Positions 2,348 to 60,545 are shown, numbered from the stretch's first letter. The stretch is 64,000 nt of DNA from a virus (IMGVR_UViG_3300045771_000049:64001-128000), one strand, 5' to 3'. The notes: generated by a model from the sequence alone, not told the origin. Numbers and translations are program-made.

Positions 2348-3211
2348 CCGGATGCAATGGGCCAGACGGCGTTTGATAATTTGCGCATATGCCGGACTGA
2401 TCTCGATCAAGGTGGCTTTGCGCCCAAGTTCGGCTGCCACCAATCCAGTGGTGCCAGCGCCCGCGAAGGGGTCCAGCACCTGATCCCCTTCCGCTGATCC
2501 GGCCAGGATACAGCGGCCTGCGAGGTTGGGTGGCATGGTTGCGAAATGCGCGTCCTTGTACGGTTTTGTGGTGATCGTCCAGACGTTCCGGGAATTGCGC
2601 ATCGGGCCGCCATCAATACCCGGTTCCTCGCGGACCAATCCATGCGTGCCGCTACGGTGATCGCCTGCGCCGGGTGCCGCATAGGCGGCTTTCGAGGTGA
2701 GACGGCGCTGCGGCTTCATGATCGCTGGTTCGGCGATCGCCTCGGCGTTATAGCGATAGACCGGCTGCTTGGTGAGCAGAAACACATGCTCATGCACCGA
2801 GGTGGGGCGATCTTTGACCGGCTCTGGCATGGCGTTCGGCTTCTGCCAGATGATATCGGAACGTAACCACCATCCATCGGATTGGAGCGCCAGGGCAACG
2901 CGGGCTGGAAGCATCATCAAATCCTTCGGCTTGGCATTGGTGTGGCGTTTGCTGCGGCCAATCGCGCTATGCCCGTGCAGCGCCTTGACGTGTTTGCCGC
3001 CCGTGCTGCCGCCCCACTTGCCATCATTGGCGTAGGAATCCCCCAGCGTCAGCCAGAGCGTGCCATCATCGCGCAGCACCCGGCGTACCGCACGAAACAC
3101 CGTGACCAGATGAGCGATATAAGCCTCCGGCGTGGGTTCGGTGCCGATTTCGGCGGGCATAAAAAAGTCAAGAAGATGAGATGGAATCAAACTTTTCCGA
3201 AATAAATTCAC
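2342..3211 (-). CDS. C-terminal part of a split beta-class N4/N6 DNA methyltransferase
   Basis: EIGTEPTPEAY..RVLRDDGTLW..GDSY, WQKPNAMPE, HFATMP, VLDPFAGAGTT; lacks SPPY, which is in the upstream ORF; own RBS-like AAAGGAA before GTG. Confidence 0.9.
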   Translation of the reverse strand: MNLFRKSLIPSHLLDFFMPAEIGTEPTPEAYIAHLVTVFRAVRRVLRDDGTLWLTLGDSYANDGKWGGSTGGKHVKALHGHSAIGRSKRHTNAKPKDLMMLPARVALALQSDGWWLRSDIIWQKPNAMPEPVKDRPTSVHEHVFLLTKQPVYRYNAEAIAEPAIMKPQRRLTSKAAYAAPGAGDHRSGTHGLVREEPGIDGGPMRNSRNVWTITTKPYKDAHFATMPPNLAGRCILAGSAEGDQVLDPFAGAGTTGLVAAELGRKATLIEISPAYAQIIKRRLAHCIRS

Positions 3212-5044: not shown

Positions 5045-5243
5045 ATTGTCGTAGCCCGAAGTCGGACTGATCCTTTGGTCGCATGGTATCACAATATATT
5101 GTTTTTGTAGCCACCCTTTTCGTAGCCACTCAGAAAGTGGCTGCTGTCTTCTTGTCGTAGCCCCGTTTGAGAAGGACTGGGGTGACCACTGACTGATCGC
5201 GATTCGCGCATCATTCTCGTTTTCGTAGCCCTGAGCAGGACTG
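5045..5243 (-). repeat. array A of short hairpin repeats C-AG(T/C)C..GGCT-AC(G/A)AxAA
   Basis: Units start on the minus strand at 5243, 5179, 5143 and 5069, plus a half unit near 5107-5112. Confidence 0.7.
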
Positions 5244-5392
5244 TGGTTGAGCTAAGTCATTTTTAGTAGCGTATGGGATGGTCGCCTTCCCATCGGCTGC
5301 CGGTTTGACAAAGAGCGGAGTATCACTGTAACATTATCATCGATCGGTTTGGGATGCAAAAACAAGTTAACGCGAACCGGTCTAAATACGCC

Positions 5393-5950
5393 GTGCGTTA
5401 TCTTGAATTCATGTCTGAGACCGTGACCGAGCCGGACTTTGGCTTTTCCAATTGGTTTGGGCGTAGCGTCGTCGTTCGTGATGGTCAGCCGCTTGAGGTC
5501 TACCATGGCAGTGCGGCGTCCCATCCGATCCCCTTTAAGATGCGGTCGAAATCGATTAACAGCACGACGCTGGGCGATGTCGCGACCACCCGGCGCGGCG
5601 CCTTCTTCACCGCTAATCCGGCCTTTGCCGCGCAATATGGCACACGGGTTGGCGGTTATTTCTTGTCCCTGCAACACCCGGCCGAGATCACCCGTGATCG
5701 CATGCTGGATTTCGCTGATTCGCTCGATGCCTTCACCGAGCGCGATCTGTGGGTCCTGGCAAAATATCAGACCAAACCCTGGATATTCTTTGATGGTGAG
5801 TTGGGGGAACGGTTTGTGCACTACTTGATCGCGGCAGGCTTCGATGGCGCCACCTTTCATGAGGATGTCGAAAGCCCCGCAGGCGAGTCGATCGAAGGCA
5901 CGACTTTCGTGGCCTTTCATCCGCAGCAGATACGGCATGTTAGTAAGTGA
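5393..5950 (+). CDS. ART-PolyVal-like ADP-ribosyltransferase with leader
   Basis: TAAATA 5383-5388, GTG start MRYLEFMSE; FSNWFGRSVVV.DGQPLEVYHGS, GAFFT, GFDG, FVAFHPQQI. Confidence 0.75.
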   Translation: MRYLEFMSETVTEPDFGFSNWFGRSVVVRDGQPLEVYHGSAASHPIPFKMRSKSINSTTLGDVATTRRGAFFTANPAFAAQYGTRVGGYFLSLQHPAEITRDRMLDFADSLDAFTERDLWVLAKYQTKPWIFFDGELGERFVHYLIAAGFDGATFHEDVESPAGESIEGTTFVAFHPQQIRHVSK

Positions 5951-6407
5951 TCTCACCGAGACGCGAGCGGCGTCGCTCTATCACGGTTGCGGTCTCGGCG
6001 GCGCCTTGCAGATCATCGCGCGGAATACCCTGGAAGACCGCACCCAGCACGAATTAGCCCCCGGCAGCGAGCCGGTCACCGGAACCTCGTTGAGCCGGTC
6101 GCTCCGCGTGGCCTGGGGCTTTGGTGATGTGGTGTTTGAGTTCGATCAGACCCGGCTGCGGCAGCGGTTTCGGCTCATCCCGGTGGATTACTGGCATCGT
6201 GCCTTGGAACCGGACTTGACCGGCGTGGGTCGGCGGCGCGGCAAATATGCCGAAGCGGAAGAATTTCTCATCGGGCCGTTGACCAACGTGATGCGCTATG
6301 TCACGGCCATCCACATGACGCCCCAGCGACTGGCATGGGCGATGAAGTATCATCAGGAGCAATCCCAGCCGCTGCTGACACATCCGTTGCTCAAAGTCAT
6401 AGAGTGA
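5937..6407 (+). CDS. ART-like protein (LYHG..SL(S/T)RS..ExEE family)
   Basis: Leader MLVSDLTE; LYHG, GTSLSRS, VVFEFD, EAEEF; paralogous to 22950 and 60866. Confidence 0.6.
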   Translation: MLVSDLTETRAASLYHGCGLGGALQIIARNTLEDRTQHELAPGSEPVTGTSLSRSLRVAWGFGDVVFEFDQTRLRQRFRLIPVDYWHRALEPDLTGVGRRRGKYAEAEEFLIGPLTNVMRYVTAIHMTPQRLAWAMKYHQEQSQPLLTHPLLKVIE

Positions 6408-6438
6408 ACTACCCCCGCCCTAAAGAGGCGGGGGCTTC
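6404..6438 (+). mobile_element. solo IS200/IS605-type end hairpin
   Basis: GTGAACTACCCCCGCCCTAAAGAGGCGGGGGCTTC resembles IS605/IscB-element terminal hairpins; no tnpA/tnpB in window. Confidence 0.55.
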
Positions 6439-6478
6439 CAAGACCAAATCGTCTGGCGCGTTCTTGATAAATAAGTTC

Positions 6479-7675
6479 ATGCGCTATCGTGAAATCTGCC
6501 GCATTCGGCCGCTGCTCGAAACGTACCGGTTTCTGACTCGTGATGAGCGGGGCAATGACATCTCACCCGATGAACTGATGGACGACGTGGACGAGCCGAA
6601 GATCATCGTGCGGTGGGGGCGTGATCGATATCAGGATGAGTTGATCGCTGTATTCCCGCTCGATGATGGGTATGATGAGCAAAAGCGCTTCCATGTTATT
6701 CTTGACGATCAGAGTGCCACGATCGAACGGGAGAGTTTTCAGTTTGAGGCCGCGCCAATTGTCAAATATCTCTTGAGTCGGTGGCCGCAATACGCGAGCT
6801 TCACATTGCACTCCATGCCCTCTTATTACAGTGAAACGGCCCTCGGGGACGTCGAAACATTGGCTGATCTGGCCAAACATACCAAACGACCTTCGGTCAC
6901 TGATCAGCGAATTTGGTACCATGGCACCTCGTCGGTACATGCGCCGGAAATTCTTCGGCTTGGACTTCGCCCGCAGGATGCCGATAATCGGCAATATCGC
7001 GGCATGCATGGCAGCAAAGAGAACATGGTCTATCTGACGTCCGATATCGACACCGCCGAATTCCATGCGAAGAATTCGGTCAAGCATTTTGGCGGGGCGC
7101 CCACGGTGTTGCGGATCGACATTTCCGGTTTGGAGGCCAATATCCGCACCGATCATGACGTGCGTTTCACGCCTTTGGCGGCGGAGCGTAACGCGCAGAA
7201 TCAGGGTGATCTCAAACGTATCCGGGCGAAACCGGGACAGGCCAGCTACATGGGTCTCAAAACCATTTCGTTTGCCGGACGTATTCCGCCGAGCCGCATT
7301 TCCATTCTGTCCCAGGGCGCGGACACCAAAGCGGCCCCGCGTTTGCAGAAGATTGCGGGCCAGTATGAGTTTCTCAAAGCCCTCGGGGCACTCACCTCGG
7401 GTATTGCCGCCGCCTACATGGATCAGTTTTTTCATATCATCGGCGCCCAGCCGTCCGGTTGGACTGGCACGACCAAACGCTATCCGGACAGCTACCGTGA
7501 GAATGTGCCCTTGCTCATCAATTCGATTCACAATGGACGGCAGGCACCGGCCAGCTACGCGCAATGGATTCGGGGGATGTATCGGCGGACCGGGGCTTGG
7601 CGCACACGCGGCGGCGTTTACACGCAGATCGTCACCTTGATCGCCGATGAGATCAAGCGCCTCAGCACGGTCTGA
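6479..7675 (+). CDS. leader-bearing protein with Tpt1/KptA-like ART domain
   Basis: TAAATA 6468-6473; MRYREICRIRPLLE; WYHGTSS..ILRLGLRP, VYLTSD..A..HA, GGAPTVLRID. Confidence 0.7.
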   Translation: MRYREICRIRPLLETYRFLTRDERGNDISPDELMDDVDEPKIIVRWGRDRYQDELIAVFPLDDGYDEQKRFHVILDDQSATIERESFQFEAAPIVKYLLSRWPQYASFTLHSMPSYYSETALGDVETLADLAKHTKRPSVTDQRIWYHGTSSVHAPEILRLGLRPQDADNRQYRGMHGSKENMVYLTSDIDTAEFHAKNSVKHFGGAPTVLRIDISGLEANIRTDHDVRFTPLAAERNAQNQGDLKRIRAKPGQASYMGLKTISFAGRIPPSRISILSQGADTKAAPRLQKIAGQYEFLKALGALTSGIAAAYMDQFFHIIGAQPSGWTGTTKRYPDSYRENVPLLINSIHNGRQAPASYAQWIRGMYRRTGAWRTRGGVYTQIVTLIADEIKRLSTV

Positions 7676-7685
7676 TGCGGGTTAT

Positions 7686-7826
7686 CAGTCCTTACTAGGG
7701 CTACGAGAAACGAGAACGAGGCGGCGATGATCTTTAAGCGACGACAGTCCTTTGTACGGCTACAATAACGGCGAGACCTTTTTTTATCGATAGTGGCGCG
7801 TACCAGTCCTTGTGGGCTACGAGAAC
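7686..7826 (+). repeat. array B: three hairpin repeats with an exact 59-nt period
   Basis: CAGTCC at 7686, 7745 and 7804, each closing with GGCT followed by ACGAGAAA, ACAATAAC and ACGAGAAC. Confidence 0.75.
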
Positions 7827-7836
7827 CAACCAAAGG

Positions 7837-8874
7837 TTATTCATCTTCTGACAATTTCGCACTGCCTGCTTTATCAGGATCAAAATTCGCATGGGCGGAG
7901 CGTACCTGATTTGCCTGAAAGGCGATCGTAACCGCATGCGATTTTCCGCGATTGCCCGGATTATAGCGGTCGATGTGCCGCAACCCGTCGTATCCGAGTT
8001 CTTCGAGCCAGCGATTCGCTTCAGTTTTGAACTCGATGGTGTCGGTCTCACCACCAAATAGCTGACTTTCCGACTGCCAGTCATGGTAGCCGTCCGTATT
8101 CTGCCAGAGTGTTTTATAAATCTCGCGCCCATAGGCAGAGGCGATCCGTCCGGAGGCCAACATCGTTGCATGGCGCTCAGCTTCTTCGGCCTCCCGTTGT
8201 TCAATCCTGTCAAGACGTTGCTTAATCTCCTTTAGGTCGTATTCAACTGCTTTCTCAACGTCCGTGATGTATTCTTCATCGTTTTCGCCGTCGTCGTAAT
8301 CATCCGGATCGATGTCCGCATGTGAGTCAGCGCCCTCAAGCGTATACAACTGATCTTCGAGTTCCTCAGTCTCGGTCCGTTCCCGATGCTCGTCCTCTAC
8401 GTCGGCCTCATCCGACCAGTTATAGGCTTCCTTTTGGAGATCGTGCCAGAACTCGATATGCTCAGCCCCATCCGGAAAACAATGGTCGAAAATGCGTTTG
8501 ATTTCGGCGAAGGGATAGACCTTATCAAGATCGAAAGGATTCTTAACTTTTAGGAAAACCTTGTATACGGTGGGGGCTGGCTCGTCGTCGGTATCGTTAC
8601 CCCACGACGTGCCGGGCTTCGAATAGCCGCTGGCAGCATCGGTATCTCTGGTCGCATAGGCACCCCGTCCGTAGGCGAGGTTCTCGTCTGGCGTCCGGTC
8701 GAGATCGACTTCGTCGAAATCGCCATTGGGCGTCCCGAAATAATGCGGATCATCCGGATCGAACCCCATCTCGCGCGCACGTGTCATGCGCGCTTCATGT
8801 GAATTATCTCCAGGTGCGGGTGGTCTGTCAGTTAGACCCTCAATCAATGCGATATAGCGCCGGATAATATTCAC
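7837..8874 (-). CDS. ART-PolyVal-like protein with acidic insertion and leader
   Basis: Leader MNIIRRYIALIE; RAREMGFD, YFGT, YGRGAYAT, VYKVFLKVKNPF, GYDG, FQANQVRSAHANFDP; promoter 8901-8906. Confidence 0.7.
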   Translation of the reverse strand: MNIIRRYIALIEGLTDRPPAPGDNSHEARMTRAREMGFDPDDPHYFGTPNGDFDEVDLDRTPDENLAYGRGAYATRDTDAASGYSKPGTSWGNDTDDEPAPTVYKVFLKVKNPFDLDKVYPFAEIKRIFDHCFPDGAEHIEFWHDLQKEAYNWSDEADVEDEHRERTETEELEDQLYTLEGADSHADIDPDDYDDGENDEEYITDVEKAVEYDLKEIKQRLDRIEQREAEEAERHATMLASGRIASAYGREIYKTLWQNTDGYHDWQSESQLFGGETDTIEFKTEANRWLEELGYDGLRHIDRYNPGNRGKSHAVTIAFQANQVRSAHANFDPDKAGSAKLSEDE

Positions 8875-8981
8875 GATTCTACCAACTACCTATGTTCTGA
8901 TATTTAATGAATATTCGAGTTCGTGTACTCCTGGTGGGGCAACTCACAGCGCGTGCGCTCAGGTTTGCCCTAAATAGCGGC

Positions 8982-9521
8982 ATGCGCTATCGTGAACTGA
9001 TGATCGAGACGACTATCCCCGGTGTGCCACCCAGCGGCAAATTCATTGCCTATCACGGCACCGGGGCGAAGATCACCCAGTTCTTTCAGCCCTCGCTGGC
9101 CGGGCATTTCTTTACCCAAGACAAGGACTACGCCAAAGGCTACGCGGGTGGCAAAACACCGCTGTCGAAAATCGACAAGCCTAAGAAAACCCGCAACTAT
9201 CTGCTCACGGTCGAGCTAGAGATCAACCACATGTTTGACACGAAACATGATCCTCAGGCCTTGGCGTATTACAACACGCGGTTTGTTCCGCAGATCAATG
9301 AAATTCGCGCCAAATATCATCAACCGCTGGTGCCGATCCTCGATCCTGGGCGGTTTGTCTCATTTGTCAATGCTGACGATTTGTACCGCCACTTCATGCG
9401 TTTCAAGCCCGACTATGACGGGATGCTGGTCGATGAGGGCAGCTTTACGTCTCCGGCCATCGTCCCATTCAACGTCGCGCAGATCAAGATCGTGAAGACC
9501 GAGATCGTCAAGTTTGACTAG
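8982..9521 (+). CDS. ART-PolyVal-like protein with leader
   Basis: TAAATA 8971-8976; MRYRELMIE; AYHGT, GHFFTQDKDYAKGYA, YDG, FNVAQIK. Confidence 0.7.
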   Translation: MRYRELMIETTIPGVPPSGKFIAYHGTGAKITQFFQPSLAGHFFTQDKDYAKGYAGGKTPLSKIDKPKKTRNYLLTVELEINHMFDTKHDPQALAYYNTRFVPQINEIRAKYHQPLVPILDPGRFVSFVNADDLYRHFMRFKPDYDGMLVDEGSFTSPAIVPFNVAQIKIVKTEIVKFD

Positions 9522-11622: not shown

Positions 11623-12375
11623 TTAGGCAATGTCGGTCTCATCGATCATGTTACTGGCCGGATAGAACGTCCCGGCATTACCGATCGCGGATTTGATCTG
11701 GGTTGACGCAAAGACCGCGTAGATATCAGCGGCCTTGCCACTGCCCTCCTGACGATCTTTCACATTCCGCACGATCAAGCCATCATAGCCCTTCTGTTTG
11801 GCCAAAGCCATAAGATCGTTGGTTGTCCAAACATCATCTTCATAATAAATGTCGCGCCAACTGTCGCCCTTCGCATTCACCCGCAGCGGTTTGATCATCC
11901 GCAGATAGGCCATGATCACGTTGCCACCCTCGGCAAAGCTCTTGACATCCTGAATGGCGTGTTGCCTGAAAAACGCACAGGCCGCGTCGAAGTCGTTATC
12001 CGTCATCAGGAGCTTGTGATATTGTTTTTGCTCGACCTCGGTGGCAAAGCCCCAATCCTCGGTCTGTTGTCCGGCATAGCTTTGCGCCATGTCGGTGGAA
12101 TTGGTGAAAATGAACGTGCCCGTAGGCACGCCGGTCTGGGTGTTCGAATTCGACATCGCTGGATCGAAGAAGCGAAAATCCGATTTGGTGCCATGATAGA
12201 CCACCAGCGGTTGGCCACTGCGATTGACCACCCGGCTCCGGCCAAACCACTGCCAAAACGCTTGGGTTGCGGTGGGGGTCTGGGCGATCGGACGTCCCAA
12301 ACTGTTGGTTGGCGGAGTCGTCGGTGCTGTCCGCTTGGCTTCGACCAGTTGCGACCAGTGGCGTAAGGTGTTCAT
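11623..12375 (-). CDS. ART-PolyVal-like ADP-ribosyltransferase with leader
   Basis: Leader MNTLRHWSQLVE; FWQWFGRSRVVNRSGQPLVVYHGT, FIFT..AQSYA, GYDGLIVRNV.D, QIKSAIGNAGTF. Confidence 0.8.
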   Translation of the reverse strand: MNTLRHWSQLVEAKRTAPTTPPTNSLGRPIAQTPTATQAFWQWFGRSRVVNRSGQPLVVYHGTKSDFRFFDPAMSNSNTQTGVPTGTFIFTNSTDMAQSYAGQQTEDWGFATEVEQKQYHKLLMTDNDFDAACAFFRQHAIQDVKSFAEGGNVIMAYLRMIKPLRVNAKGDSWRDIYYEDDVWTTNDLMALAKQKGYDGLIVRNVKDRQEGSGKAADIYAVFASTQIKSAIGNAGTFYPASNMIDETDIA

Positions 12376-18951: not shown

Positions 18952-19272
18952 CTATTTGAACGCACACCCCTCGACTTCGCCGGTTTGGTATTGATTGCAG
19001 ATCATGGTTTTCCTTTGCACCCCGATCGCCTGCCGCACCAGATTGGGCGTCCGGAGCGTGGCGGTCTTGTTTTGACAATCGAGTGTGAGACTGACGTGTT
19101 CGTCGTGGTCGATGCTGACATCCTGGATCGTACACGTCACCCCGGAGGCGATGATGGTGTGAGCGGCCGATGAGGTCATGAGCATGTTGGCCAGCACCGC
19201 GAGAACCAGCAGGGCGGCGAGCGCCGCATAATGCAGCACCAGCCTTGCGCTATCAAAGGGTATCAACTTCAT
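18952..19272 (-). CDS. membrane-anchored hypothetical protein
   Basis: N-terminal TM; four Cys. Confidence 0.5.
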   Translation of the reverse strand: MKLIPFDSARLVLHYAALAALLVLAVLANMLMTSSAAHTIIASGVTCTIQDVSIDHDEHVSLTLDCQNKTATLRTPNLVRQAIGVQRKTMICNQYQTGEVEGCAFK

Positions 19273-19762
19273 GTGCCGCCTCCACAAACTTGATTATGGG
19301 ACACAACCGCGCTTTGAGCGCGCCGTAATAGTCGCCGATCACCCGCCAAAATCCCGGCCGGGTTGGATCGACCGGTTTGGCTGGATGCGTCAGAAGGTAG
19401 GATTGCCGCCAGTGGCCGAGAGCGTTCAGGAGCAGGATCAGCCCGAAGAGCAAACTGCCGATGCCACCGAGCGTCAGGATCGCCTGGATCACCAACTGGG
19501 TGACATTGATGAAGCTGAACAAAATGAGCGGCAACACAAATACCACATAAAGCACATAGCCAAACACCGAGAGCGTCACCAGAAAAATCAGATTGCCCCA
19601 TACCAAGATGCGGAAGAAGTGGCACAAATCTGTGCCACGGGCATATTTTGTCAGGCGGGAACTCTCAAACGCCAGCGCGCGCTGGGTCGAACAAAAGCGA
19701 TCGATCACCCGACAGCACCAAAAGAACCATCGGACATACCACAGTTGGGAATGTAAGTTCAT
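19253..19762 (-). CDS. phage membrane protein
   Basis: DLCHFFR, 2-3 TMs, C-terminal YYGALKARLCPIIKF; start placed at MNLHSQ. Confidence 0.6.
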   Translation of the reverse strand: MNLHSQLWYVRWFFWCCRVIDRFCSTQRALAFESSRLTKYARGTDLCHFFRILVWGNLIFLVTLSVFGYVLYVVFVLPLILFSFINVTQLVIQAILTLGGIGSLLFGLILLLNALGHWRQSYLLTHPAKPVDPTRPGFWRVIGDYYGALKARLCPIIKFVEAAHEVDTL

Positions 19763-23878: not shown

Positions 23879-23953
23879 GGGCGCGTAGTTCAGGGGTAGA
23901 ACGCCTGTTTTACAAGCAGGATGCCGGTGGTTCGAAACCATCCGCGCCTACCA
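23879..23953 (+). tRNA. tRNA-Val(UAC)
   Basis: Cloverleaf; anticodon arm CCTGT-TTTACAA-GCAGG; GGTTCGAAA T-loop; encoded CCA. Confidence 0.92.
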
Positions 23954-24030
23954 ATCCCCGAAATGTGGTTTCTTGTGAATAACAGGGCAGTGGTGAAGTT
24001 GTCGGCGACCGCACCTGACCAACTTTAAAT

Positions 24031-24102
24031 GGCGGGACTTCTCGGGAAGGGACGCGTTTCATAAGCGCATCTAGACCGGTTCGATGCCGGTACCCGCCAC
24101 CA
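24031..24102 (+). tRNA. tRNA with CAU anticodon (Met or Ile2), atypical D-arm
   Basis: GGCGGG/CCCGCC acceptor; loop TTCATAA; ACCGG-TTCGATG-CCGGT; CCA end. Confidence 0.7.
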
Positions 24103-24166
24103 TCCCTCAGAACAACCGGCTTGTTGGCGCGATAGATAGCGGCTCAACAAGCAAGGTTAGTCGTCC

Positions 24167-24466
24167 ATGAGTGATGTTCCCAACTATACCCATTATCTTC
24201 GTCTTGCCTTCACCGGATACTGGACCGACAGTTGTCCCTCGGCCGAGAAGTTCTACGTTTTGGGCAAAGCCCTCAACGTTACTCTGACCGATGTCTACGA
24301 ACTAGAGTCTGAAGTGCTTGGCATGATGACAGAATGGTACGGCGACCGCATCACCGAGGTCACCTATATCGGCCATATCAATGTCAGGTTGTCCGACACT
24401 GATGTGATCGACGAGGGTTGGTATGTGTTTGACCCAGAATCCATCCAGCCGCTGCCGGTGGGCTGA
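24167..24466 (+). CDS. hypothetical protein
   Basis: 99-aa acidic ORF inside the tRNA cluster. Confidence 0.55.
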   Translation: MSDVPNYTHYLRLAFTGYWTDSCPSAEKFYVLGKALNVTLTDVYELESEVLGMMTEWYGDRITEVTYIGHINVRLSDTDVIDEGWYVFDPESIQPLPVG

Positions 24467-24468
24467 GC

Positions 24469-24637
24469 GTGGCGAAGAAAAACCACAGTTCAGATTAAGC
24501 TGATCTCGACCGCTGATACCGGATACTTCTACGTCACTACCAAGAACTCTCGCAGCAAAGCGAACAAATTGGTGCTGCGCAAGTATGACCCGGTGGTCCG
24601 TAGACATGTCGATTTCAAGGAAACCAAAATCAAATGA
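24469..24637 (+). pseudogene. rpmG: 50S ribosomal protein L33 (Zn-free type) with a one-base insertion near codon 5
   Basis: GTG GCG AAG AAA then, in the +1 frame, [51 protein letters not shown]-stop. Confidence 0.9.
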
Positions 24638-24654
24638 TGAACGTGAACTAAAGC

Positions 24655-24740
24655 TGGTGGGGGCTGAGGGGGTCGAACCCTCACTTCCTAACGGAAACCT
24701 GATCTTAAATCAAGCGCGTATGCCTTTTCGCCAAACCCCC
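24655..24740 (-). tRNA. tRNA-Leu(UAA)
   Basis: Anticodon arm CTTGA-TTTAAGA-TCAGG; long variable arm; CCA. Confidence 0.9.
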
Positions 24741-24760
24741 TTTGAGGCTTCCAGATTGGA

Positions 24761-24848
24761 TGGTGTGGGCGAGAGGAATTGAACCTCCACGATCCTCTCG
24801 GACCAACAGGGTTTGAGCCTGTCGCGGCTGCCGTTACGCCACGCCCAC
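24761..24848 (-). tRNA. tRNA-Leu(CAA)
   Basis: Anticodon arm ACAGG-CTCAAAC-CCTGT; long variable arm; CCA. Confidence 0.9.
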
Positions 24849-49802: not shown

Positions 49803-52214
49803 TTAGACCAAAATGGCCGCTTCGCCGCCTTGCAGCGCCACCCCATGGCCCCACAGCGTCTTGACGTGGTTGGCCATCGCCGCAGCGTTGTCGAGATTGC
49901 GCCCGCGATAGGGCGTGTAAGTGAGGGTCAGAATGCGAGTTTCAGGATCGACGGTGCTGACCTCGATCTGGGGCACCGTGTTGTGGCGTTCGTACTGATC
50001 GGCCAGACTGTCACGCACTTTCTGATAACCCGCATCGTCGTGGATCGCGGCGACCTTATATTCCGGTTTGCCGTTATCATCGTGGATTTGGAACAGTTTC
50101 AGGGCGCGTATCACTTCCGGTGACAGAAATTGCCGGATCATGCTCTCATCCCGGTAGTTGGCCCAGATGTCGCGAATGACCGCCATCTCATCCTGGACCC
50201 CGGCGATCTCGGGAAACCACCGACGATCCTCATCGGTTGGTTCGTGACAGATACGCTCCACGTCCTTCATGATCGCAAAGCCCAGGGCGTAAGGATTGAT
50301 GCCGGTATAGCGGTGATCATTGAAGTTCGGTTGCATCACGACATTGGTATGGGATTGCAGGAATTCCAGCATCGCGCCATCGGTCATATGACCGAGTTCA
50401 TGCAACCGGGTCATGATCCGGTAGTGCACATAAGTGGCGCACCCTTCGTTCCCGCACTTGGTTGCGCCTTGAGGGTAGAAGTATTGCGCGATTTTACGCA
50501 CGATGCGGATGGTCTCACGCTGCCATTCCTTCAAATCCGGGGCGAACTTCTCGCAGAACCAGAGGATGTTTTCCTCGGGCTGGGCAGGAAATTTCTTCAC
50601 CTTAGCTTCCGGGTCTTTCTTCGCCTTGATCAACGAATCAAATAGTTCACTGATATGAGCCACGTCATAGTCGTTTTTCTCGGCCTGTCGTTTGCGTTCA
50701 TTCACCAAGGAAAGTTTGCGCGGCTTGCGATACGGATTGACCCCATAATTCATCAACGCGTGACAAGAATTAAGAAATGTTTCAACGACCTCACGACCTT
50801 CGCGAGCCTCGCACTGGTTGATATAGTCGCGCGCGAAGATCAGATAGTCCAAGATCGACGAGGCGTCGGTCCATTCCTTGAACAGGTAATTGTTACGAAA
50901 GAAGTGGGAATGGCCTTGGCAATTTCCCGTGACAGAGATTTTGTTATTGCGGCGCATGACAAACATGCCGCTTGGGACGGTGAAGCAGTAGGCTAGGCCG
51001 TCTGGACTGGGAATGCGCGCGAATGGCTGCGGTGGTAAGCGTCCATCTTTGCTGATTCCAATGAGTGGTCGTTCAGACTTGGTTACATTTACACAGCGAG
51101 TACCGGCTGATATATGGCCGTGACATCCAGTTGCAGCCCACACGTACTGGACAAACTCCACATCCTGTTTGAATTCTGAAGTAAAATTGAAATTTGGACT
51201 GGCGACCGAACCGTCCCAGTAGCAAACCTCCTCACCAATCAGTTTTAGTTGACGATATGAGGCGGTATACCACTCAGCAGTAAACCGCTTATCGATCATC
51301 GGATAACGGAAGAGTACAGAATGTCTTCCCTCATAGGTCGGTTTGCTAGTGTAAGCGATGCCGAGTTTATCCAAAAGCATTTTTAAGCGCGCGATCTTTC
51401 GTTCTTTCTTCAGATGGAATCTCATGATGTAGTCGGGTTTGACGTCGAAGTGCGTCTTATCGACATTTGGATTGATCATTGAACCGTCTGCTTTGATCGC
51501 GATATGCAGGCAGATTTCGTCATCACTCAATGGTAATTCGTTTTCGATATCGATATGAAATCCGGTGATGAATCGATTGCACATGCCGCGTGTTTTATTC
51601 CGGTGTTGTTGGTATAATTCGGCACCCGTGGTCGTACGGAGCTTGTTATAATGATCCACCAGGATCACCGTGTGGTCCTCGGTGATTGCCTGATCGATTT
51701 TTTCACTCTCAATATGGATGAAGTCAGTCTGCGGACGCTTGATGTAAGCTTCTGGCTCAACAAAATTCACGCGCCCATCTTCGTGATACTGGGCGACCTT
51801 ACCTGCCTGATAGGCATCGATTCTTTGCCAGCCGGTTGGCGAAAGATATTCAGTATCACCGGAAACACAGGCGTGACTCAGCACAAGGCTTTGCATAGTC
51901 TGCGTGTTTTCCTCCATCAGATAAGCGATGCAGGGGTCGGAGTTGATCACGATCTCATAGGCCAAGCCCTGATAACCATGCTTGTACAATTCCCAGTCAC
52001 GCGAGAAGTGTTTACCGAACGACCAATGCCGGTAGAAAATCGGCATCCCATTTCCAGCATAGGCGTCAACCATCTGTTCGGCGGTGATGATCTCGATCTG
52101 GGCGGGGTACGGCGTCAGGCCGAGTTCCTGGGTGCCGATCCGTTCGATTTCTTTGTACACCCGATTGATGATTTCAAACGACCATTCCGAAGCCGTCCAG
52201 AGATATTCGGCCAT
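49803..52214 (-). CDS. ycgB: SpoVR/YcgB family protein with intein
   Basis: IEIITAEQM, GMP.FY.HWSFGK, GLAYEIVINSDPCIAYLMEEN, NEGCATYVHY, NPYALGF, YRDES.I.QFLS. Confidence 0.93.
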   Translation of the reverse strand: MAEYLWTASEWSFEIINRVYKEIERIGTQELGLTPYPAQIEIITAEQMVDAYAGNGMPIFYRHWSFGKHFSRDWELYKHGYQGLAYEIVINSDPCIAYLMEENTQTMQSLVLSHACVSGDTEYLSPTGWQRIDAYQAGKVAQYHEDGRVNFVEPEAYIKRPQTDFIHIESEKIDQAITEDHTVILVDHYNKLRTTTGAELYQQHRNKTRGMCNRFITGFHIDIENELPLSDDEICLHIAIKADGSMINPNVDKTHFDVKPDYIMRFHLKKERKIARLKMLLDKLGIAYTSKPTYEGRHSVLFRYPMIDKRFTAEWYTASYRQLKLIGEEVCYWDGSVASPNFNFTSEFKQDVEFVQYVWAATGCHGHISAGTRCVNVTKSERPLIGISKDGRLPPQPFARIPSPDGLAYCFTVPSGMFVMRRNNKISVTGNCQGHSHFFRNNYLFKEWTDASSILDYLIFARDYINQCEAREGREVVETFLNSCHALMNYGVNPYRKPRKLSLVNERKRQAEKNDYDVAHISELFDSLIKAKKDPEAKVKKFPAQPEENILWFCEKFAPDLKEWQRETIRIVRKIAQYFYPQGATKCGNEGCATYVHYRIMTRLHELGHMTDGAMLEFLQSHTNVVMQPNFNDHRYTGINPYALGFAIMKDVERICHEPTDEDRRWFPEIAGVQDEMAVIRDIWANYRDESMIRQFLSPEVIRALKLFQIHDDNGKPEYKVAAIHDDAGYQKVRDSLADQYERHNTVPQIEVSTVDPETRILTLTYTPYRGRNLDNAAAMANHVKTLWGHGVALQGGEAAILV
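50922..51869 (-). mobile_element. intein in SpoVR (316 aa)
   Basis: LSHA|CVSGDTEYL..ITEDH..YCFTVPSG..VTGN|CQGH; degenerate endonuclease region. Confidence 0.9.
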
Positions 52215-52223
52215 GTTACAGTC

Positions 52224-53504
52224 CTATACGTTGACGCTTTGTTTTTGAAACAGCGAGCGAAAGACTTCAATGACATTGTCCGGTGAAGACAACCGTCGGG
52301 CCGCGACCTTCGGCGTGAGGGCGGCAATTTCAGCGAACATCTTCCAGACTTCCGAGTCACGCTGCACCAACCCGTTCGGATAACCGCTGCTATCGCGACC
52401 GACCTCGACATAGGTCACATATTGGAACCACGGCAGCATGGCGGACAATTTCTCCCGCGCTTCGGTATTGTCGCTGGACGAATTATCGCCATCCGAGCAC
52501 TGCGCCATATACAGGTTCCAACTATTCACATCATAGCGTGAGATGATAATCTTGCGGGCTTCTTCGTATGCTACGGACACGACGGTGCCACCGGTATCGG
52601 TCGCGTGAAAGAATGTATCTTGGTCAACCTCGGCCGCAACATGGGTGTGCCGGATGAAGACGATATCCACATGCTTGTATTGACGGGTGAGGAACAACCA
52701 GAGCAACAGATAGAACCGTTTGGACAATTCCTTCATAAACTCGGTCACCGACCCTGACACATCCATGATCGCGATCATCACTGCCTGGGTGATCGGCGTC
52801 GGCCGCTTCTCAAAGTTCACATAGCGCAGATCGGATTTCTCTAAAAAGCTGATCGCGTCAGCGCTGTGTTGCAAGGCGGCGATTTCTATATTGATTTCGC
52901 GCTTGCGGTCTTCGTCGTCGGTTTCTTGCAATTCGCCGATGAGTTCTTCGATCAGCGCGAGTTTGGGGAATTTCAACGCGATGCGCCGACCGAGGCCCTG
53001 GATCATGGTGCGTTCCAGCGCGAGGTTGCTGGTCGAGCCAACCGTGGTGAAGCCAGCCCGGTGGCGAGTGAACGAGATGGTCTGCTTATTGGAGCGCTTG
53101 ATCATGTCTGGCAGGCAGAGGTCTTCGAGGATGGCATCGACGTATTCCTGGTAGCTGATGCTGAACCGGAAGTCGTCATTCCCCTCGCCGTCCCGCGCGC
53201 CGTCTGAGCCACTGCCGCCGCCAGCGGGTGGCCGGGGGATGTTATCCCCGACCACGTAGTCTTGGTTACCCGGCAGCACGTAGTCCCACATACCTTTGCC
53301 TTTGGCGTAGTGGAATTGGGGTTCCTCGATCCCGTCTTTGGAGACGGTCACCTCGGTATCGGACTTGTCCTGGATGTTGCGGCCATTGAGTTGTTTCCGC
53401 GCCGCTGTGCGGATCGATCCTCTCACGCGCTCGACGAAGCGTTGCCGGTTTGTCAGACTTTTCCCACTGGGGTTCAGGCGTCGATCAATAATGCCGAATG
53501 TCAT
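52224..53504 (-). CDS. yeaH: YeaH/YhbH (DUF444) vWA-like protein
   Basis: IIDRR..KS..NRQRF, LPGN.DY..GD, MDVSGS, FIRH, GGTVVS, SDGDN. Confidence 0.93.
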   Translation of the reverse strand: MTFGIIDRRLNPSGKSLTNRQRFVERVRGSIRTAARKQLNGRNIQDKSDTEVTVSKDGIEEPQFHYAKGKGMWDYVLPGNQDYVVGDNIPRPPAGGGSGSDGARDGEGNDDFRFSISYQEYVDAILEDLCLPDMIKRSNKQTISFTRHRAGFTTVGSTSNLALERTMIQGLGRRIALKFPKLALIEELIGELQETDDEDRKREINIEIAALQHSADAISFLEKSDLRYVNFEKRPTPITQAVMIAIMDVSGSVTEFMKELSKRFYLLLWLFLTRQYKHVDIVFIRHTHVAAEVDQDTFFHATDTGGTVVSVAYEEARKIIISRYDVNSWNLYMAQCSDGDNSSSDNTEAREKLSAMLPWFQYVTYVEVGRDSSGYPNGLVQRDSEVWKMFAEIAALTPKVAARRLSSPDNVIEVFRSLFQKQSVNV

Positions 53505-53522
53505 GACAGGTGTCCTTAAAAA

Positions 53523-56500
53523 TTACCCAGACTTCTGCACTCGCATATAATACTCAACGACACGCCGAACTTGTCGGGGCGTGTAACCTTTCTGGCTCAT
53601 GCGATCAACAAAGTCATTGTGTTTATCTTGATCGTCTTTGTTCGACTTAGTACCGAAACTGACGATCGGCAGCAGTTCAGCCACGTTCGAGAACATCTTC
53701 TTCTCGATCACCTTGCGCAGTTTTTCGTAGGACGTCCACTTGATGATTTTGCCGTTGGCCCGCTGGCGCAACACAAACTTGACGCATTCCTGCCGAAAAT
53801 CCTTCGGATTGGCGATGCCAGCCGGTTTTTCGGTCTTCTCCAACTCGCCGTTCAGATATTCGCGGTTGAACATTGTGCCAGTGTCGGCGTCCTTATAATC
53901 GATATCGTCCATCCAGTGGTCTGCATAGACTATATACCGATCGAACAAGGTTTGCCCGAATTCGTCATAGGCTTCCAGGTAGGCCATCTGGATTTCGTTG
54001 CCGATGAACTCGACGTAGCGCGGCGCCAATTCCGATTTGATATAGTCGAGATACATTTTCTCGGCGTCGTTGGGGAACTGTTCGCGGATCAACGCCCGTT
54101 CCAACATGAACAAGAGATGCACCGGATCGGCCGACACTTCGTCGGTGTCGTGGTTGAACGTCGCGGATAAGACCTTGAACGCGAACCGGGTTGACGTGCC
54201 GGTCATCCCCTCATCAACGCCCGCCGCTTCGCGGTATTCCATCACCGGCTTGGCGCGCGGATCGGTCTCCTTGATGTTTTGCCCGTCATAGACACACAGT
54301 TTCGCCCACTGGGTGGAATTCTCATGCTTCGCCAGCCGCGTAAGGACCGAGAATTCGGCCAGCATCTGCAAGGTCGCCGGGGCACACGGGGCATTCTTCA
54401 AGTCAGACGACTGAAGCATCTTCTCATAGATCAGGCGCTCATCGGTGGCGCGCAGGCAATACGGCACCTTGATCACACAAATCCGATCGATGAAGGCTTC
54501 ATTATTAGAGTTTGCCTTAAAGTTCTGCCATTCGCTCTGATTCGAATGCGCCACGACGATACCGTTGAACGGGATGGCGGAAATGGCTTCAGTTCCCATA
54601 TAATTGCCTTCCTGCGTCGCCGTCAGCAACGGATGTAGCATTTTTATCGGAGCTTTAAACATTTCAACGAACTCAAGCATGCCTTGGTTGCCCCGGCACA
54701 GACCACCTGAAAACGAATAGGAATCAGGATCATCCTGTGAGAACTTTTCCAGCTTGCGGATGTCAGTCTTGCCGACCAGGGACGAAATATCCTGATTGTT
54801 CTCGTCGCCCGGCTCGGTCTTGACGATGCCGATCTGTTCGAGCTTCGACGGCATCACCCGCGCCACCCGGAACTTGGTGATATCGCCACCCGCCTGCTTG
54901 AACCGTTTGATCGCCCATGGACTGAGAATCATATTCAAGTAACGCTTGTCGATGCCATAATCGGCCATCAGTGCATGATACCTGGGCGCATTGAACAGAC
55001 CGAGCGGCGTTTCCAGCACGGGCGACATTCCATCACCTGCACACAATACGTAGATCGGAAACTTGGTCATCAACTCGCCGACGCGGATCGCCAGACTCGA
55101 ATTATGACTAACAATGCCGTTCGCGACGTAATTATGCGTTCCGGCAACTTCAATATCATACATCGGCTCATCACAGTCGAGGTCAACGATATCGTCTATC
55201 TTGTCCCAGTAAATATCACCTTCGGCAAGTTCTCGCAACGATTCAGCGTTTTTGAAGAACTCAATGGCATATCGGACAAAGCCCCTGCGGGACCCGATGT
55301 TATTGTCGAGTTGAGTGCGCAAGTTTTCCTTGAGTCTGGACGTACCGTCTTTTTTTGATGCTAGTAGAGTGTTTGTGGCCTCGATCACTAAGTTCTTCGG
55401 CAAAATATCCCAACCACCCGAGTGCTTTCGTTGATCGATGACACTGACAAACACTTCGTCACATGCCTTTTCTTTTCCATAAATACCAATTCTGGAAAGA
55501 AACGTCATGATATGATACCGATCATATATTGCAACAGTATAGGCTCTCCGTTTCTTCACCCCGTTCAAAATCGGCACGTAGGAGGAGATGCGTGCAGCGA
55601 TACCAAATTTGCTTAGCAGCGAGCAGACTTGTCGAGCCATGATCTCAGACACACTGGTATAGCCGATTTCGTTATTAGTTCCGCAAGAAGCCCATCCATC
55701 AGTGGCGTATAATCTAGATAAAAATAACGCGACTTGATCTTCTTCCAATTGGAACACGTAGTCAGGAATGAATTTTGTGTGACTTAGCGTACCGTTTAGG
55801 TTCAATTCCTCAAAACGATGGCGGATCGCCATTTCACCTTCGCGTTCATTGATCCGGTAATAGTCGATCAGACCTGTTGCTGCTTCGATCTGCGGTTTGA
55901 CGACACAGCCCAGTTCCGCAACTGCGCCTTGAAAATCAGCTACCACCGCTTCGTTGAAATTGGTGAACGTTATATTTCCAGATGCCGGTATATGCCCGTC
56001 ACCCAGGATATAAGCTAGTACTTTTAGAAACGCTTCGTCGTCGCGTTTGGTACCGAACGGCAATGTCATTGCCGTAGCAATCAAATCCCCCGGTCGCAAA
56101 GCGTCAATTTGTTTCCAGCCATGGTTGGTGAATAAACGATGCGTTGGGGCTCCGCACACCTCCAAACCACGCGATGTAGTGACTTTCCAAACAGGCTTTT
56201 CATCTAGGATGAAAGTGTTGTTGACCTGCTCCGCACAGGTCCGATGTGTAGTTGCATCAGTCGAAACCACACAGTCACCGACCTGAACAGTTTCGATGGT
56301 TCTCCATGACCCATCAGCCATGGCGATCAAGGTCCCGGCACGGTGACATTTCGCGGTGCCGACCGGCCCCAGTAGATAGAGGATTTGCTTGCGTTCCTCC
56401 AAGCCCTGCGCGGCGTGCTTGAAGTATCCCACGATCCGCTCAATCGTGTCCTCCATGCCGTAGAAGTCCTCGAAGGCTGGATAGACTCGCACGGTGCGAT

Positions 56501-56711
56501 TGGCGAAGATGCGCGACAGCCGAGGATCGGCCGAGGTATCAAGCTTGACGGGATCACCAATGGCCGCAACCATGCGTTCGGCGGGTGTGGCATAGGCCAT
56601 CGAATCGGTGCGACAGAGGTCCAAATAGTCCTGGATACTCATGTACGTGGTTTCGGTAATTTGAAAGTCGTTTTTGAGAAGGGCTACGATGTCCATTTGC
56701 TGTCCTGACAA
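53523..56711 (-). CDS. prkA: PrkA/YeaG AAA+ kinase with intein
   Basis: FYGME, GLEERKQILYLLGPVG, KTEPGDENNQDISSLVG, EFVEMFKAPIKMLHPLLTATQEG; promoter 56721-56726. Confidence 0.95.
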   Translation of the reverse strand: MSGQQMDIVALLKNDFQITETTYMSIQDYLDLCRTDSMAYATPAERMVAAIGDPVKLDTSADPRLSRIFANRTVRVYPAFEDFYGMEDTIERIVGYFKHAAQGLEERKQILYLLGPVGTAKCHRAGTLIAMADGSWRTIETVQVGDCVVSTDATTHRTCAEQVNNTFILDEKPVWKVTTSRGLEVCGAPTHRLFTNHGWKQIDALRPGDLIATAMTLPFGTKRDDEAFLKVLAYILGDGHIPASGNITFTNFNEAVVADFQGAVAELGCVVKPQIEAATGLIDYYRINEREGEMAIRHRFEELNLNGTLSHTKFIPDYVFQLEEDQVALFLSRLYATDGWASCGTNNEIGYTSVSEIMARQVCSLLSKFGIAARISSYVPILNGVKKRRAYTVAIYDRYHIMTFLSRIGIYGKEKACDEVFVSVIDQRKHSGGWDILPKNLVIEATNTLLASKKDGTSRLKENLRTQLDNNIGSRRGFVRYAIEFFKNAESLRELAEGDIYWDKIDDIVDLDCDEPMYDIEVAGTHNYVANGIVSHNSSLAIRVGELMTKFPIYVLCAGDGMSPVLETPLGLFNAPRYHALMADYGIDKRYLNMILSPWAIKRFKQAGGDITKFRVARVMPSKLEQIGIVKTEPGDENNQDISSLVGKTDIRKLEKFSQDDPDSYSFSGGLCRGNQGMLEFVEMFKAPIKMLHPLLTATQEGNYMGTEAISAIPFNGIVVAHSNQSEWQNFKANSNNEAFIDRICVIKVPYCLRATDERLIYEKMLQSSDLKNAPCAPATLQMLAEFSVLTRLAKHENSTQWAKLCVYDGQNIKETDPRAKPVMEYREAAGVDEGMTGTSTRFAFKVLSATFNHDTDEVSADPVHLLFMLERALIREQFPNDAEKMYLDYIKSELAPRYVEFIGNEIQMAYLEAYDEFGQTLFDRYIVYADHWMDDIDYKDADTGTMFNREYLNGELEKTEKPAGIANPKDFRQECVKFVLRQRANGKIIKWTSYEKLRKVIEKKMFSNVAELLPIVSFGTKSNKDDQDKHNDFVDRMSQKGYTPRQVRRVVEYYMRVQKSG
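55101..56348 (-). mobile_element. LAGLIDADG intein in the PrkA P-loop (416 aa)
   Basis: GPVGTAK|CHRAGT..LAYILGDG..LYATDG..YDIEV..NGIVSHN|SSLA. Confidence 0.93.
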
Positions 56712-57749: not shown

Positions 57750-57956
57750 CCCGGTCGCTTACTTCCGAGGCGGCTCCCGGTCACTTACTCCCGAGGCGGC
57801 GGATGTACGCGGAACGCAGTTCAGTGTCAACGCCTTCTTTTTTTGAACGGTGGCAGTTGACCCGCTTGACAAACCGACCGGTCTCCAACAGACTGTTTGT
57901 CCAGCCAAGATAATGGCTACGATAACAAGAAGCGATTGGTCCAGGTATGACATGGA

Positions 57957-59210: not shown

Positions 59211-60545
59211 TCAATCCTGCTTACGGCTGTGGTAGAGCCACAACATCTTGTACAACTGGTCTGCGTTCAAATCGGCGATCAGATCGCGCAGTTTCTGCGA
59301 CGGCTCATTCGGATGGTGGATACGGGCGAGTGCCAGCATCGCGGCTTGGGCCTTCGGTCGAGAATAGGTAGCTTTGAGCTTGGCGATACCGGCCGCCTCC
59401 GTGCCGGGGACGCCCGCAACGGCACGGTCACCATGGACCGTCTCATCCCAGGGCTGCAAATAATTCGGATCACCCTTGGTATCCACCACCTGCACCTGAG
59501 TGATAAAACTCTTTGCGTTGGTGATTTTGTTCGTTTTACTGGTAACGACCCATTCCCATTCGTAGTTGTCGCCCAGTGTGCCGTATTCATCGTCATCATC
59601 ATGTGGTGTGACGGTGTGGGATGCGGCCAGTTTGTGCCCATCTAACGTGAGGACCACGCCCCATCGGCCGCCCTGGGATGACATTCTGGCAAACCGAATC
59701 GCGACACTTTCATCTTCGGTGGTACTAAACCCGAGATTGCCTTGATCGTAGCTGTCGATGTCGAAGGTGTTGCTGGCGCGCATGTCCAGATACTGTTGGA
59801 GACCCGTGCCGTGATACAGCGTCTCGGGCACGCCGTTATGGCCGTGTCGCAAGGTCTCGCCCAGAATGTCAGTATGTGAGTTCACTCTGCCGTCGAGCAG
59901 CTTATCGCTAGACGTTTTTGATGGATCGAAGCTGGCGTGTCGGGTGCGGATATTGTTTGGATGAAACACCACGTAGCTGTCGCCTTTGCCTTCGACACGA
60001 TTGCCATAAACCAAACCGTCATAGCCTTGTCGCTCGGCGCTGGCTTGGATCGCGCGCCAAAAATCTGCGGCACTGGCTGTGAACTTGGCTTGTTGTTCGC
60101 TCTTAGACTTGTTCAGAGCGCCCCATTCACCACCCGCTGCGCGTCGCAATCGATCTGTTTGTTTCGCCAAGTCGAAAATACGATCATGATCCTCGTTATT
60201 CGGATCAAAACCTTTAGTGTTCAAACACCAAATCTTGGCGCGGTTCATATAGGTCGTTCGCAACGTAGAAAACATATCATAGACACGCAGGGGGTTATGC
60301 AGACGCAGTTTGACGGGAATAATATTTGCGCCCGGCTGATACTCCGCATTGTCAGGCGAACGAAATATTGGTCTTATGACTTTATCAGCCTGTTGAAGAG
60401 TCCCGAAATGCATCCCGATATCGCCAGTTCGGCGCGGATCGAACGCGTCAAAAGCAGCGGTCGTGCCGTGGTAGGCATCGATGTTGAAGCCTCGATCATC
60501 GGCGTCTTCCACCAGCCGTATCCATCGTCTCAGGGCATTTTCCAT
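59211..60545 (-). CDS. tandem two-ART-domain protein with leader
   Basis: Promoter 60550-60555; MENALRRWIRLVE; domain 1 AYHGT..GMHFG..GYDGLVY.N..EG; domain 2 LYHGT..GFSTT..A.RFA..YEWE. Confidence 0.75.
   Translation of the reverse strand: MENALRRWIRLVEDADDRGFNIDAYHGTTAAFDAFDPRRTGDIGMHFGTLQQADKVIRPIFRSPDNAEYQPGANIIPVKLRLHNPLRVYDMFSTLRTTYMNRAKIWCLNTKGFDPNNEDHDRIFDLAKQTDRLRRAAGGEWGALNKSKSEQQAKFTASAADFWRAIQASAERQGYDGLVYGNRVEGKGDSYVVFHPNNIRTRHASFDPSKTSSDKLLDGRVNSHTDILGETLRHGHNGVPETLYHGTGLQQYLDMRASNTFDIDSYDQGNLGFSTTEDESVAIRFARMSSQGGRWGVVLTLDGHKLAASHTVTPHDDDDEYGTLGDNYEWEWVVTSKTNKITNAKSFITQVQVVDTKGDPNYLQPWDETVHGDRAVAGVPGTEAAGIAKLKATYSRPKAQAAMLALARIHHPNEPSQKLRDLIADLNADQLYKMLWLYHSRKQD

Follow-up and report, generated by a model that had tools for sequence, protein, structure and literature searches.

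The stretch of DNA analysed here (the window, 64,000 nt) spans bases 64001-128000 of a 152,147-bp IMG/VR virus record with a CheckV completeness of 36%, and belongs to a T4-like phage with an intein-bearing, Gp20-type portal. Direct reading of positions 7200-8300 revealed three hairpin units starting at 7686, 7745 and 7804 at a period of 59 nt, exactly as described in an earlier note on this DNA, including a U-G pair in the stem, a variable loop and approximately 35 unique nt. Units are ordered as a hairpin (AGUC..GGCU), a tail (AC(G/A)A-N-AA-N) and 35 unique nt, and the resulting array fills the gap between two convergent genes, the second of which encodes a paralog of the ART-PolyVal family of ADP-ribosyltransferases:

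6335-7675, + strand: co-oriented gene upstream of the array, 446 aa, without a Pfam family; its stop lies 11 nt before the array
7687-7702, + strand: hairpin of unit 1, AGUCCU uacu AGGGCU, 6 bp with one U-G, retained in MFE and centroid folds
7703-7710, + strand: tail of unit 1, ACGAGAAA, a putative 8-nt 5' tag, repeated by the following 7 nt (CGAGAAC)
7711-7745, + strand: 35-nt unique segment 1, which would act as guide in RNA 1; without a match elsewhere
7746-7761, + strand: hairpin of unit 2, AGUC cuuuguac GGCU, 4 bp only
7762-7769, + strand: tail of unit 2, ACAATAAC / ACAAUAAC
7770-7804, + strand: 35-nt unique segment 2, which would act as guide in RNA 2
7805-7818, + strand: hairpin of unit 3, AGUCC uugu GGGCU, 5 bp with one U-G
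7819-7826, + strand: tail of unit 3, ACGAGAAC, the same tail as that of the regular CRISPR repeat in the contig
7837-8874, - strand: ART-PolyVal paralog, 345 aa, convergent with the array (E 3.6e-10), with a stop codon 11 nt past unit 3

Unit 2 is the weakest of the three, with pairs 5 and 6 of its stem broken and a variant tail; given its 4-bp stem and atypical tail, it may be poorly processed. The third stem pair is a U-G on the + strand; read from the opposite strand, these bases would form an A-C mismatch. The pattern AGTCCN{3,9}GGCTAC occurs five times in the window against 0.05 expected, at least five matches being reached in 0 of 100 shuffled sequences, and two of the five matches form a second cluster on the minus strand at 5045-5245. 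Within the window array, about 20 of 25 positions are common to the units and the loops differ, so that the units are not the near-identical repeats of 23-47 nt that would define a CRISPR array; its two spacer-like segments, as is generic for CRISPR, are unique and similar in length (35 nt), neither of them recurring within 0.3 Mb of related DNA. Because the loops differ between units, Tandem Repeats Finder was blind to the array. An Rfam gathering scan and ARAGORN returned nothing at the array locus, and blastn searches of INPHARED with the locus, the regular array and 5 kb of context gave no match. Furthermore, the fold of the whole region was not more stable than that of shuffled sequences (z 0.34), only the small hairpins being of consequence.

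Since the array starts 11 nt past the stop of the 446-aa gene, it is probably co-transcribed with that gene, and no promoter-like site was found between the two. Relatives of the 446-aa protein were absent from IMG/VR, and PHROGs and Atlas searches with the neighbouring genes yielded nothing useful, the only leads being weak ART-like ones for the 446-aa protein. On the other side, sequence past the tail of unit 3 enters the 3' end of the ART gene in antisense orientation. This ART protein has a 60% identical relative in another phage (G006), and belongs to an expansion of eight strong ART-PolyVal paralogs, with several weaker ones, in 152 kb. Paralogs and a sister array are distributed as follows:

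5045-5245, - strand: sister array of four full units and one half unit, antisense to both of its neighbours
5333-5360, - strand: sigma-70-like promoter candidate TTTGCA-16-GATAAT reading into the sister array, a consensus match only
5354-5950, + strand: ART-PolyVal ADP-ribosyltransferase paralog, 198 aa (E 1e-11), 109 nt from the sister array
8907-9521, + strand: ART-PolyVal paralog, below the Pfam cut-off, with a strong match to the paralog profile
Window 11623-12375 and 59211-60545; L007:5564-6409 and L007:8957-9697; genome 44092-44667 and 60978-61577: further ART-PolyVal paralogs

The first unit of the sister array is an inverted copy of unit 1, with approximately 38 nt in common, including an additional ACGAGAA(C/T)GA(G/T)GCG past the tail. 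The two arrays thus bracket a cassette comprising the 198-aa ART gene, orf187 and orf446.

A scan of the whole contig identified 17 dispersed units at seven loci, numbered along the genome or the window:

Genome 7402/7460: two units
Genome 10558/10612: two units
Genome 19074-19191: unit locus
Genome 29510: solitary unit
Window 5054-5228: unit locus
Window 7701-7817: the three-unit array
Window 57917: solitary unit, AGCCA agauaa UGGCU ACGAUAAC, at 57900-57926, + strand, just downstream of a co-oriented gene and between convergent genes

All dispersed units fit C-AG(U/C)C...GGCU-AC(G/A)A-N-AA-N, and 12 positions are invariant in an alignment of 16 units. At five of the seven loci the units immediately follow a co-oriented gene, and three of the five, 7686-7826 among them, are placed between convergent genes; both solitary units are found at gene ends. 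Also, six of the seven loci lie within 1.5 kb of an ART-PolyVal gene (p ~0.006 by a rough binomial estimate), and in a related phage fragment (L047) an ART-PolyVal gene at 2380-3138 (E 7e-24) likewise lies between unit arrays. The recurrence of ART-PolyVal genes beside the units in these two contigs constitutes a lead.

The contig begins with a regular CRISPR array (genome 1-420, L007:1-420, minus strand, continued at L043:1-520), which immediately follows the T4-type portal gene and a hairpin resembling a terminator. It consists of at least five identical 36-nt direct repeats, GTCCGGCACAGCCTTCGTTTGTAAGGCTACGAGAAC, separated by unique 30-nt spacers at a period of 66 nt, the first repeat carrying a 6-nt deletion. 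The contig ends inside this array, which the metagenome contigs L042 and L043 extend to about 11 repeats, adding a duplicated spacer, a spacer truncated to 10 nt, and two variant terminal repeats with a common 12-nt extension ahead of them. The last 28 nt of the regular repeat are the dispersed-unit element itself, C-AGCCUU-cguuugu-AAGGCU-ACGAGAAC, and the unit at genome 7402 still retains the 5' GTCCGG of the regular repeat. No cas genes were found on either side of the regular array, including 13 kb beyond it in L043, and the exact 36-nt repeat had no match in IMG/VR. The portal gene itself (L007:539-3571, 1010 aa) carries an intein and a Gly/Pro/Ala-rich terminal tail. A unit found at L045:5600-5640 and L046:4110-4150 carries the regular-repeat loop in reverse complement (acaaacg rather than cgtttgt) on an otherwise identical palindromic stem, which suggests a local inversion of the hairpin.

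Comparison of units revealed that the hairpin has been selected as RNA on the named strand. Among 12 gap-free units, the 6-bp stem is paired in 97.2% of cells against 87.5% in shuffled controls, with a covariation score of 0.376 against 0.178, neither value being reached in 500 shuffles; shifting the partner by one column reduced pairing to 43-57%. Pair 5 occurs as CG, AU or GC and pair 6 as UG, CG, UA or GC. In a set of 60 unique units drawn from seven sources, the stem continues past AGYC/GGCU in 48, compared with 23.5 for chimeric controls. Pair 3 is a U-G in most dispersed units and a C-G in the regular repeat, the former being an A-C on the opposite strand. It is these covarying stems, together with the need for U-G pairs, that place selection on the RNA of the named strand. 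Positions 5 and 8 of the tail vary freely among units.

Conservation of the hairpin and its handle extends beyond the contig, a lack of which in related phages would have counted against the earlier note: a two-unit pattern scan of IMG/VR identified the family in at least five other viral contigs (G001-G005). G003 (L047; 26 kb, 7% complete) contains 36 copies of GGCTACRANAA, compared with none of a control pattern, and includes a single 1.6-kb run with 23 motif copies and unique 35-nt segments; G005 is a near-copy of G003. In G002 (22 kb, CheckV 44%) the repeats differ from the regular repeat by 3 nt over hairpin and tail and share its loop, cgtttgt, while G004 (45 kb, CheckV 58%) carries seven units. 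An 840-aa phage protein adjoining the unit arrays of L047 (L047:4376-6898) bears shoulder and repeat domains of the major-vault-protein type. The remaining contig, G001 (IMG/VR 3300029907_000025; 34 kb, 8% complete), possesses an array of about seven units and a complete type IV-A cas gene set, assigned with PADLOC and Pfam:

L054:9885-10622, - strand: Csf3 (E 1.3e-13)
L054:10687-11364: Csf1 (E 9e-5, a weak match)
L054:11318-11911: Cas6e-like RNase (Pfam PF08798, CasE/Cse3, 3.9e-19; PADLOC Cas6 5e-21; PDB CasE matches)
L054:11856-13139: Csf2 (E 1.7e-14)
L054:13108-15306: CasDinG (E 5.4e-47; best PDB match 8s35_M)

The coordinate set 8s35_M is cited in the cryo-EM study of types IV-A1 and IV-A3 (PMC11519345). 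The Cas6e-like protein possesses a C-terminal glycine-rich GIGNAKAFGFGFL motif and an invariant His after YPQ, and the unit array of G001 (19311-19599), the sole repeat family in its 34 kb, lies 4 kb downstream of the cas genes on the same strand. Close relatives of these cas genes in IMG/VR were confined to G001, and among 5.8 billion proteins the Cas6e-like protein had only two other relatives. One of these is encoded on a Logan contig (SRR29078259_48741; L057) with the same five cas genes in the same order, eight units in two arrays (five at one end and three about 4 kb away) and one more unit immediately after csf3. Hence both cas-bearing contigs found carry the hairpin-unit family. The Logan contig also encodes, at L069:4759-8635 and L057:13181-13558, NAMPT/NAPRTase, an NMNAT-NUDIX protein, IF3, ClpX and a ribosomal L7/L12 homolog, the gene for the last lying directly 3' of casDinG.

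The csf1, csf2, csf3, cas6 and dinG set that defines a type IV-A locus is present in these two contigs and absent from the window's own contig and L043. The absence of cas genes from the window, as claimed previously, holds and extends to the whole 152-kb contig and its 13-kb continuation L043, i.e. 165 kb of phage DNA. Neither Cas6 (PF01881, PF10040), Cas6e, Csy4, RAMP (PF03787) nor Cas1 models matched in the 152-kb contig, and HMMs built from the five type IV-A proteins returned nothing at E<=1 among six-frame ORFs of the contig, L043, L045, L047 and L051. PADLOC over all 128 ORFs of the contig produced a list swamped by methyltransferase models and uninformative on cas, and NCBIfam over the same ORFs identified TnpB only. 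This TnpB was considered as a type V-U effector and set aside, as it is part of an ordinary IS200/IS605 element that has end hairpins of its own and lies 25 kb away from the nearest unit. That element (genome 42415-44106, L009:2415-4106) encodes a TnpA of 132 aa and a TnpB of 423 aa (NCBIfam E 1.4e-92), and its matching end hairpins, CCGCGACC-tctttag-GGTCGCGG, are unrelated to the units. Cas6, Cas6b, Csy4 and RAMP families were absent from the family-bearing fragments, and Cas1 (PF01867) from all six IMG/VR fragments, each a partial genome. Only one weak ORF match was found between the contig and G001, and what links this phage to the cas-bearing contigs is the RNA motif. G006 was also rejected as a bridge of kinship to G001, having only three ORFs in common with the contig and no units.

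Searches of the unique segments against phages, which the earlier note had proposed, identified no protospacer in the contig, 0.3 Mb of related phage DNA, INPHARED or IMG/VR, including a search of IMG/VR with segment 2 in which every sixth base was left free. No segment match longer than 13-15 nt occurred in the contig and the 0.3 Mb of related DNA. Among one genome each of 185,579 prokaryote species, no arrays ending in ...GCTACGAGAAC were found, only that end being sought. In the same genomes, a two-copy tail pattern matched only repeats that were coding or due to chance, plus a single, unrelated array from Ignavibacteria in which the motif lies mid-repeat; in IMG/VR it matched unrelated coding tandem repeats only.

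Taken together, the hairpin units most likely encode small guide or decoy RNAs. With neither identical repeats nor adjacent cas genes, the window locus on its own departs in two respects from a type IV-A CRISPR locus, and we would class the array as a degenerate mini-array within a repeat family linked to type IV-A. On balance, we lean towards a degenerate, non-adaptive mini-array of type IV-A kind, which would yield guide RNAs of 57-59 nt for DNA silencing. In type IV-A systems, Cas6 cleaves pre-crRNA at the base of the hairpin and remains bound to the hairpin at the 3' end, a 5' tag of 7-8 nt is bound by Cas5, Cas7 subunits are arranged along the guide, and CasDinG provides nuclease-free transcriptional interference, with no Cas1 expected (PMC11519345). 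The order of hairpin and 8-nt tail, and the covariation of the stem, appear to fit this repeat layout. The earlier note had recognized the layout of a Cas6 substrate and proposed processed small RNAs, a proposal that gains from the regular array with the same hairpin and ACGAGAAC, and from the occurrence of the family beside cas genes in two phage contigs.

Under this mini-array reading, the array would be transcribed as the 3' end of an operon ending with gene 6335-7675, and a Cas6e-like endoribonuclease would cut at the 3' base of each hairpin, after 7702, 7761 and 7818. The predicted products are RNAs of 59 nt (7703-7761) and 57 nt (7762-7818), together with a tagged RNA running antisense into the ART gene; in each complete RNA, an 8-nt 5' tag would precede the 35-nt guide, and Cas6 would stay bound to the hairpin at the 3' end. 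Assembly with Csf proteins would then lead to CasDinG-dependent silencing, rather than cutting, of matching host or competitor DNA. The cas genes may reside in the unsampled ~60% of the phage genome, or be supplied in trans. With no adaptation module (Cas1-Cas2), we infer that repeats would never be recopied, so that only the parts read by proteins, the lower stem (AGYC/GGCU) and the tail (AC-R-A-N-AA-N), would be conserved while drift affects everything else. Solitary and half units, being unable to yield complete guides, count against a guide-array function, as do the lack of cas genes in the 165 kb of phage DNA and the failure to find protospacers in the sequences searched.

[quoted passage not shown] Unlike type IV-A, the present repeats are heterogeneous, with only the lower stem and tail kept; at least seven loci lie far from any cas gene in a contig without cas genes; the regular repeat is 36 nt; and the repeats are borne by a large T4-like phage instead of a plasmid. 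The claim of a type III-like handle was not supported. Although the 8-nt tag of S. epidermidis type III-A crRNA, ACGAGAAC, is the same string as that in unit 3 and the regular repeat, and occurs in papers on staphylococcal III-A systems, no Cas10/Csm, RAMP or Cas6-family genes were found here and tag positions 5 and 8 vary. Given that the cas genes linked to the family belong to type IV-A and include a Cas6e-like RNase, and that the tail varies, the identity looks coincidental. Precedents exist for type IV systems carried by some phages, as well as for viral mini-arrays and solitary repeats (PMC11656645); new here is a degenerate, dispersed and structurally conserved form, with a T4-like carrier and an ART neighbourhood.

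The earlier note had offered a mini-array, crRNA mimics and decoy antitoxin repeats as options, the first two of which we retain. Decoy antitoxin repeats found no support, as tandem units of identical sequence are absent and a scan of flanking genes matched no nuclease family; compared with ToxI-like RNA, units are separated by unique 35-nt segments and the neighbours are ART-PolyVal and unassigned genes. Mimics of the Racr or Cracr/crlRNA type, the main rival reading, would copy the CRISPR repeat of a host or rival and soak up Cas6/Csf, or redirect them onto cas or toxin promoters, thereby disarming that system. We regard this as unlikely, though it would accommodate a contig without cas genes, the existence of solitary and half units, and the spread of the family to apparently much smaller phages (G002 and G004, by CheckV), which fits a shared host system. 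Precedents include solitary repeats acting as Racrs (PMC10651486; PMC11656645) and short, cas-less, virus-borne arrays or single repeats yielding crRNA-like RNAs that use Cas proteins encoded elsewhere (PMC11656645; PMC10651486). In described viral mini-arrays, however, repeats are identical to those of the host and spacers are directed against related viruses (PMC11656645), whereas the present repeats differ from one another and no targets were found. Arrays of repeat-like units have also been documented on viruses for types I and V-A (10.1101/2024.10.29.618823). These Cracr arrays comprise stacked, imperfect, Cas6-processed units, as seen here in their stacking and imperfection, with two to three spacers of 21-24 nt matching cas or toxin promoters in types I-B/C/E/F and V-A (10.1101/2024.10.29.618823). 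By contrast, our segments are 35 nt long, relatives possess more than 20 units (the L047 array, with at least 23 units, exceeds described Cracr arrays), and no partial promoter match was found in the contig and related DNA. Nor were arrays ending in ...GCTACGAGAAC, the only end sought, present in the 185,579 prokaryote species genomes. Two phage contigs carry their own type IV-A operon beside such arrays; phage-borne cas operons and very long arrays make mimicry unlikely as the only role.

It is improbable, in our estimation, that the units serve only as Cas6-type RNA processing or stability elements without a guide role, i.e. as cut sites in transcripts, protein-capped mRNA 3' ends, or separators of neighbouring messages. 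Such elements would suit the placement of five of the seven loci directly downstream of co-oriented genes, three of them between convergent genes, as well as the unit immediately after csf3 in L057 and the solitary units at gene ends. They would leave unexplained the multi-unit arrays at a CRISPR-like period, the 1.6-kb L047 array with its 23 motif copies and the regular 36/30 array, and they sit poorly with a sister array (5045-5245) that runs antisense to the genes on either side, with a promoter-like site of its own.

Repeats acting at the DNA level in the shuffling of accessory gene cassettes are less probable still. Elements of comparable type are the promoter-early stem-loop cassettes of T4-type phages, and REP elements, composed of GTAG plus a palindrome. 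The carrier phage is indeed T4-like, the reverse complement of a unit reads as GTAG plus a palindrome, the contig encodes an IS200/IS605 TnpA, the inverted arrays bracket the ART-orf187-orf446 cassette with first units that are inverted copies, and six of the seven loci lie within 1.5 kb of the expanded ART-PolyVal paralogs. Against this, the U-G would be an A-C on the other strand, so that only one strand folds, and promoter hexamers are absent from the units. Furthermore, units within a cluster are direct repeats at CRISPR spacing rather than inverted pairs as in REP/BIME, the sole Y1 transposase belongs to the IS200/IS605 element with unrelated end hairpins, and the family is linked to cas genes elsewhere. 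Least probable of all, and only barely credible, are decaying relics of former CRISPR arrays with no present function: divergence of loops, of the 5' part of the repeat and of tail positions 5 and 8, half units, duplicated and truncated spacers in the main array and a failure to find targets would be expected of relics, but compensatory stem changes and 12 invariant positions across unlinked loci and different phages would not be expected under neutral decay.

Returning to the mini-array reading, a bolder extension, which we hold to be doubtful, is that of a hard-wired, non-adaptive type IV-A 'guide regulon': dozens of scattered, individually evolving crRNA genes, preferentially beside ART genes, each conserved only in the parts read by Cas6e and Csf, through which, in the course of infection, CasDinG would silence chosen genes of the host or a rival. 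Most type IV-A systems known are plasmid-borne and act in inter-plasmid conflict and gene silencing; a regulon of this kind, if real, would constitute a programmable device for host takeover rather than an immune system. The family also illustrates how arrays might look after long evolution without an adaptation module, with free loops and spacers and dispersed arrays, pairs and singletons. It offers a natural mutational map of the RNA features needed by a Cas6e-like/Csf complex, represents a class of loci that standard CRISPR finders miss, and makes it possible to test whether a large phage turns CRISPR interference to regulation or counter-defence.

Other features of the contig include a phage-borne prkA-yhbH-spoVR-like gene group at window 49803-56711, in which a LAGLIDADG-containing intein splits PrkA (53523-56711) and YhbH occupies 52224-53504; a SpoVR-family match (E 1e-207) was identified among the 128 ORFs. 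Also identified were a single ORF of 3937 aa at genome 44667-56480 (L009:4667-16480) and, at window 23879-24848, a tRNA cluster on both strands comprising Val-TAC, Met-CAT, Leu-TAA and Leu-CAA.
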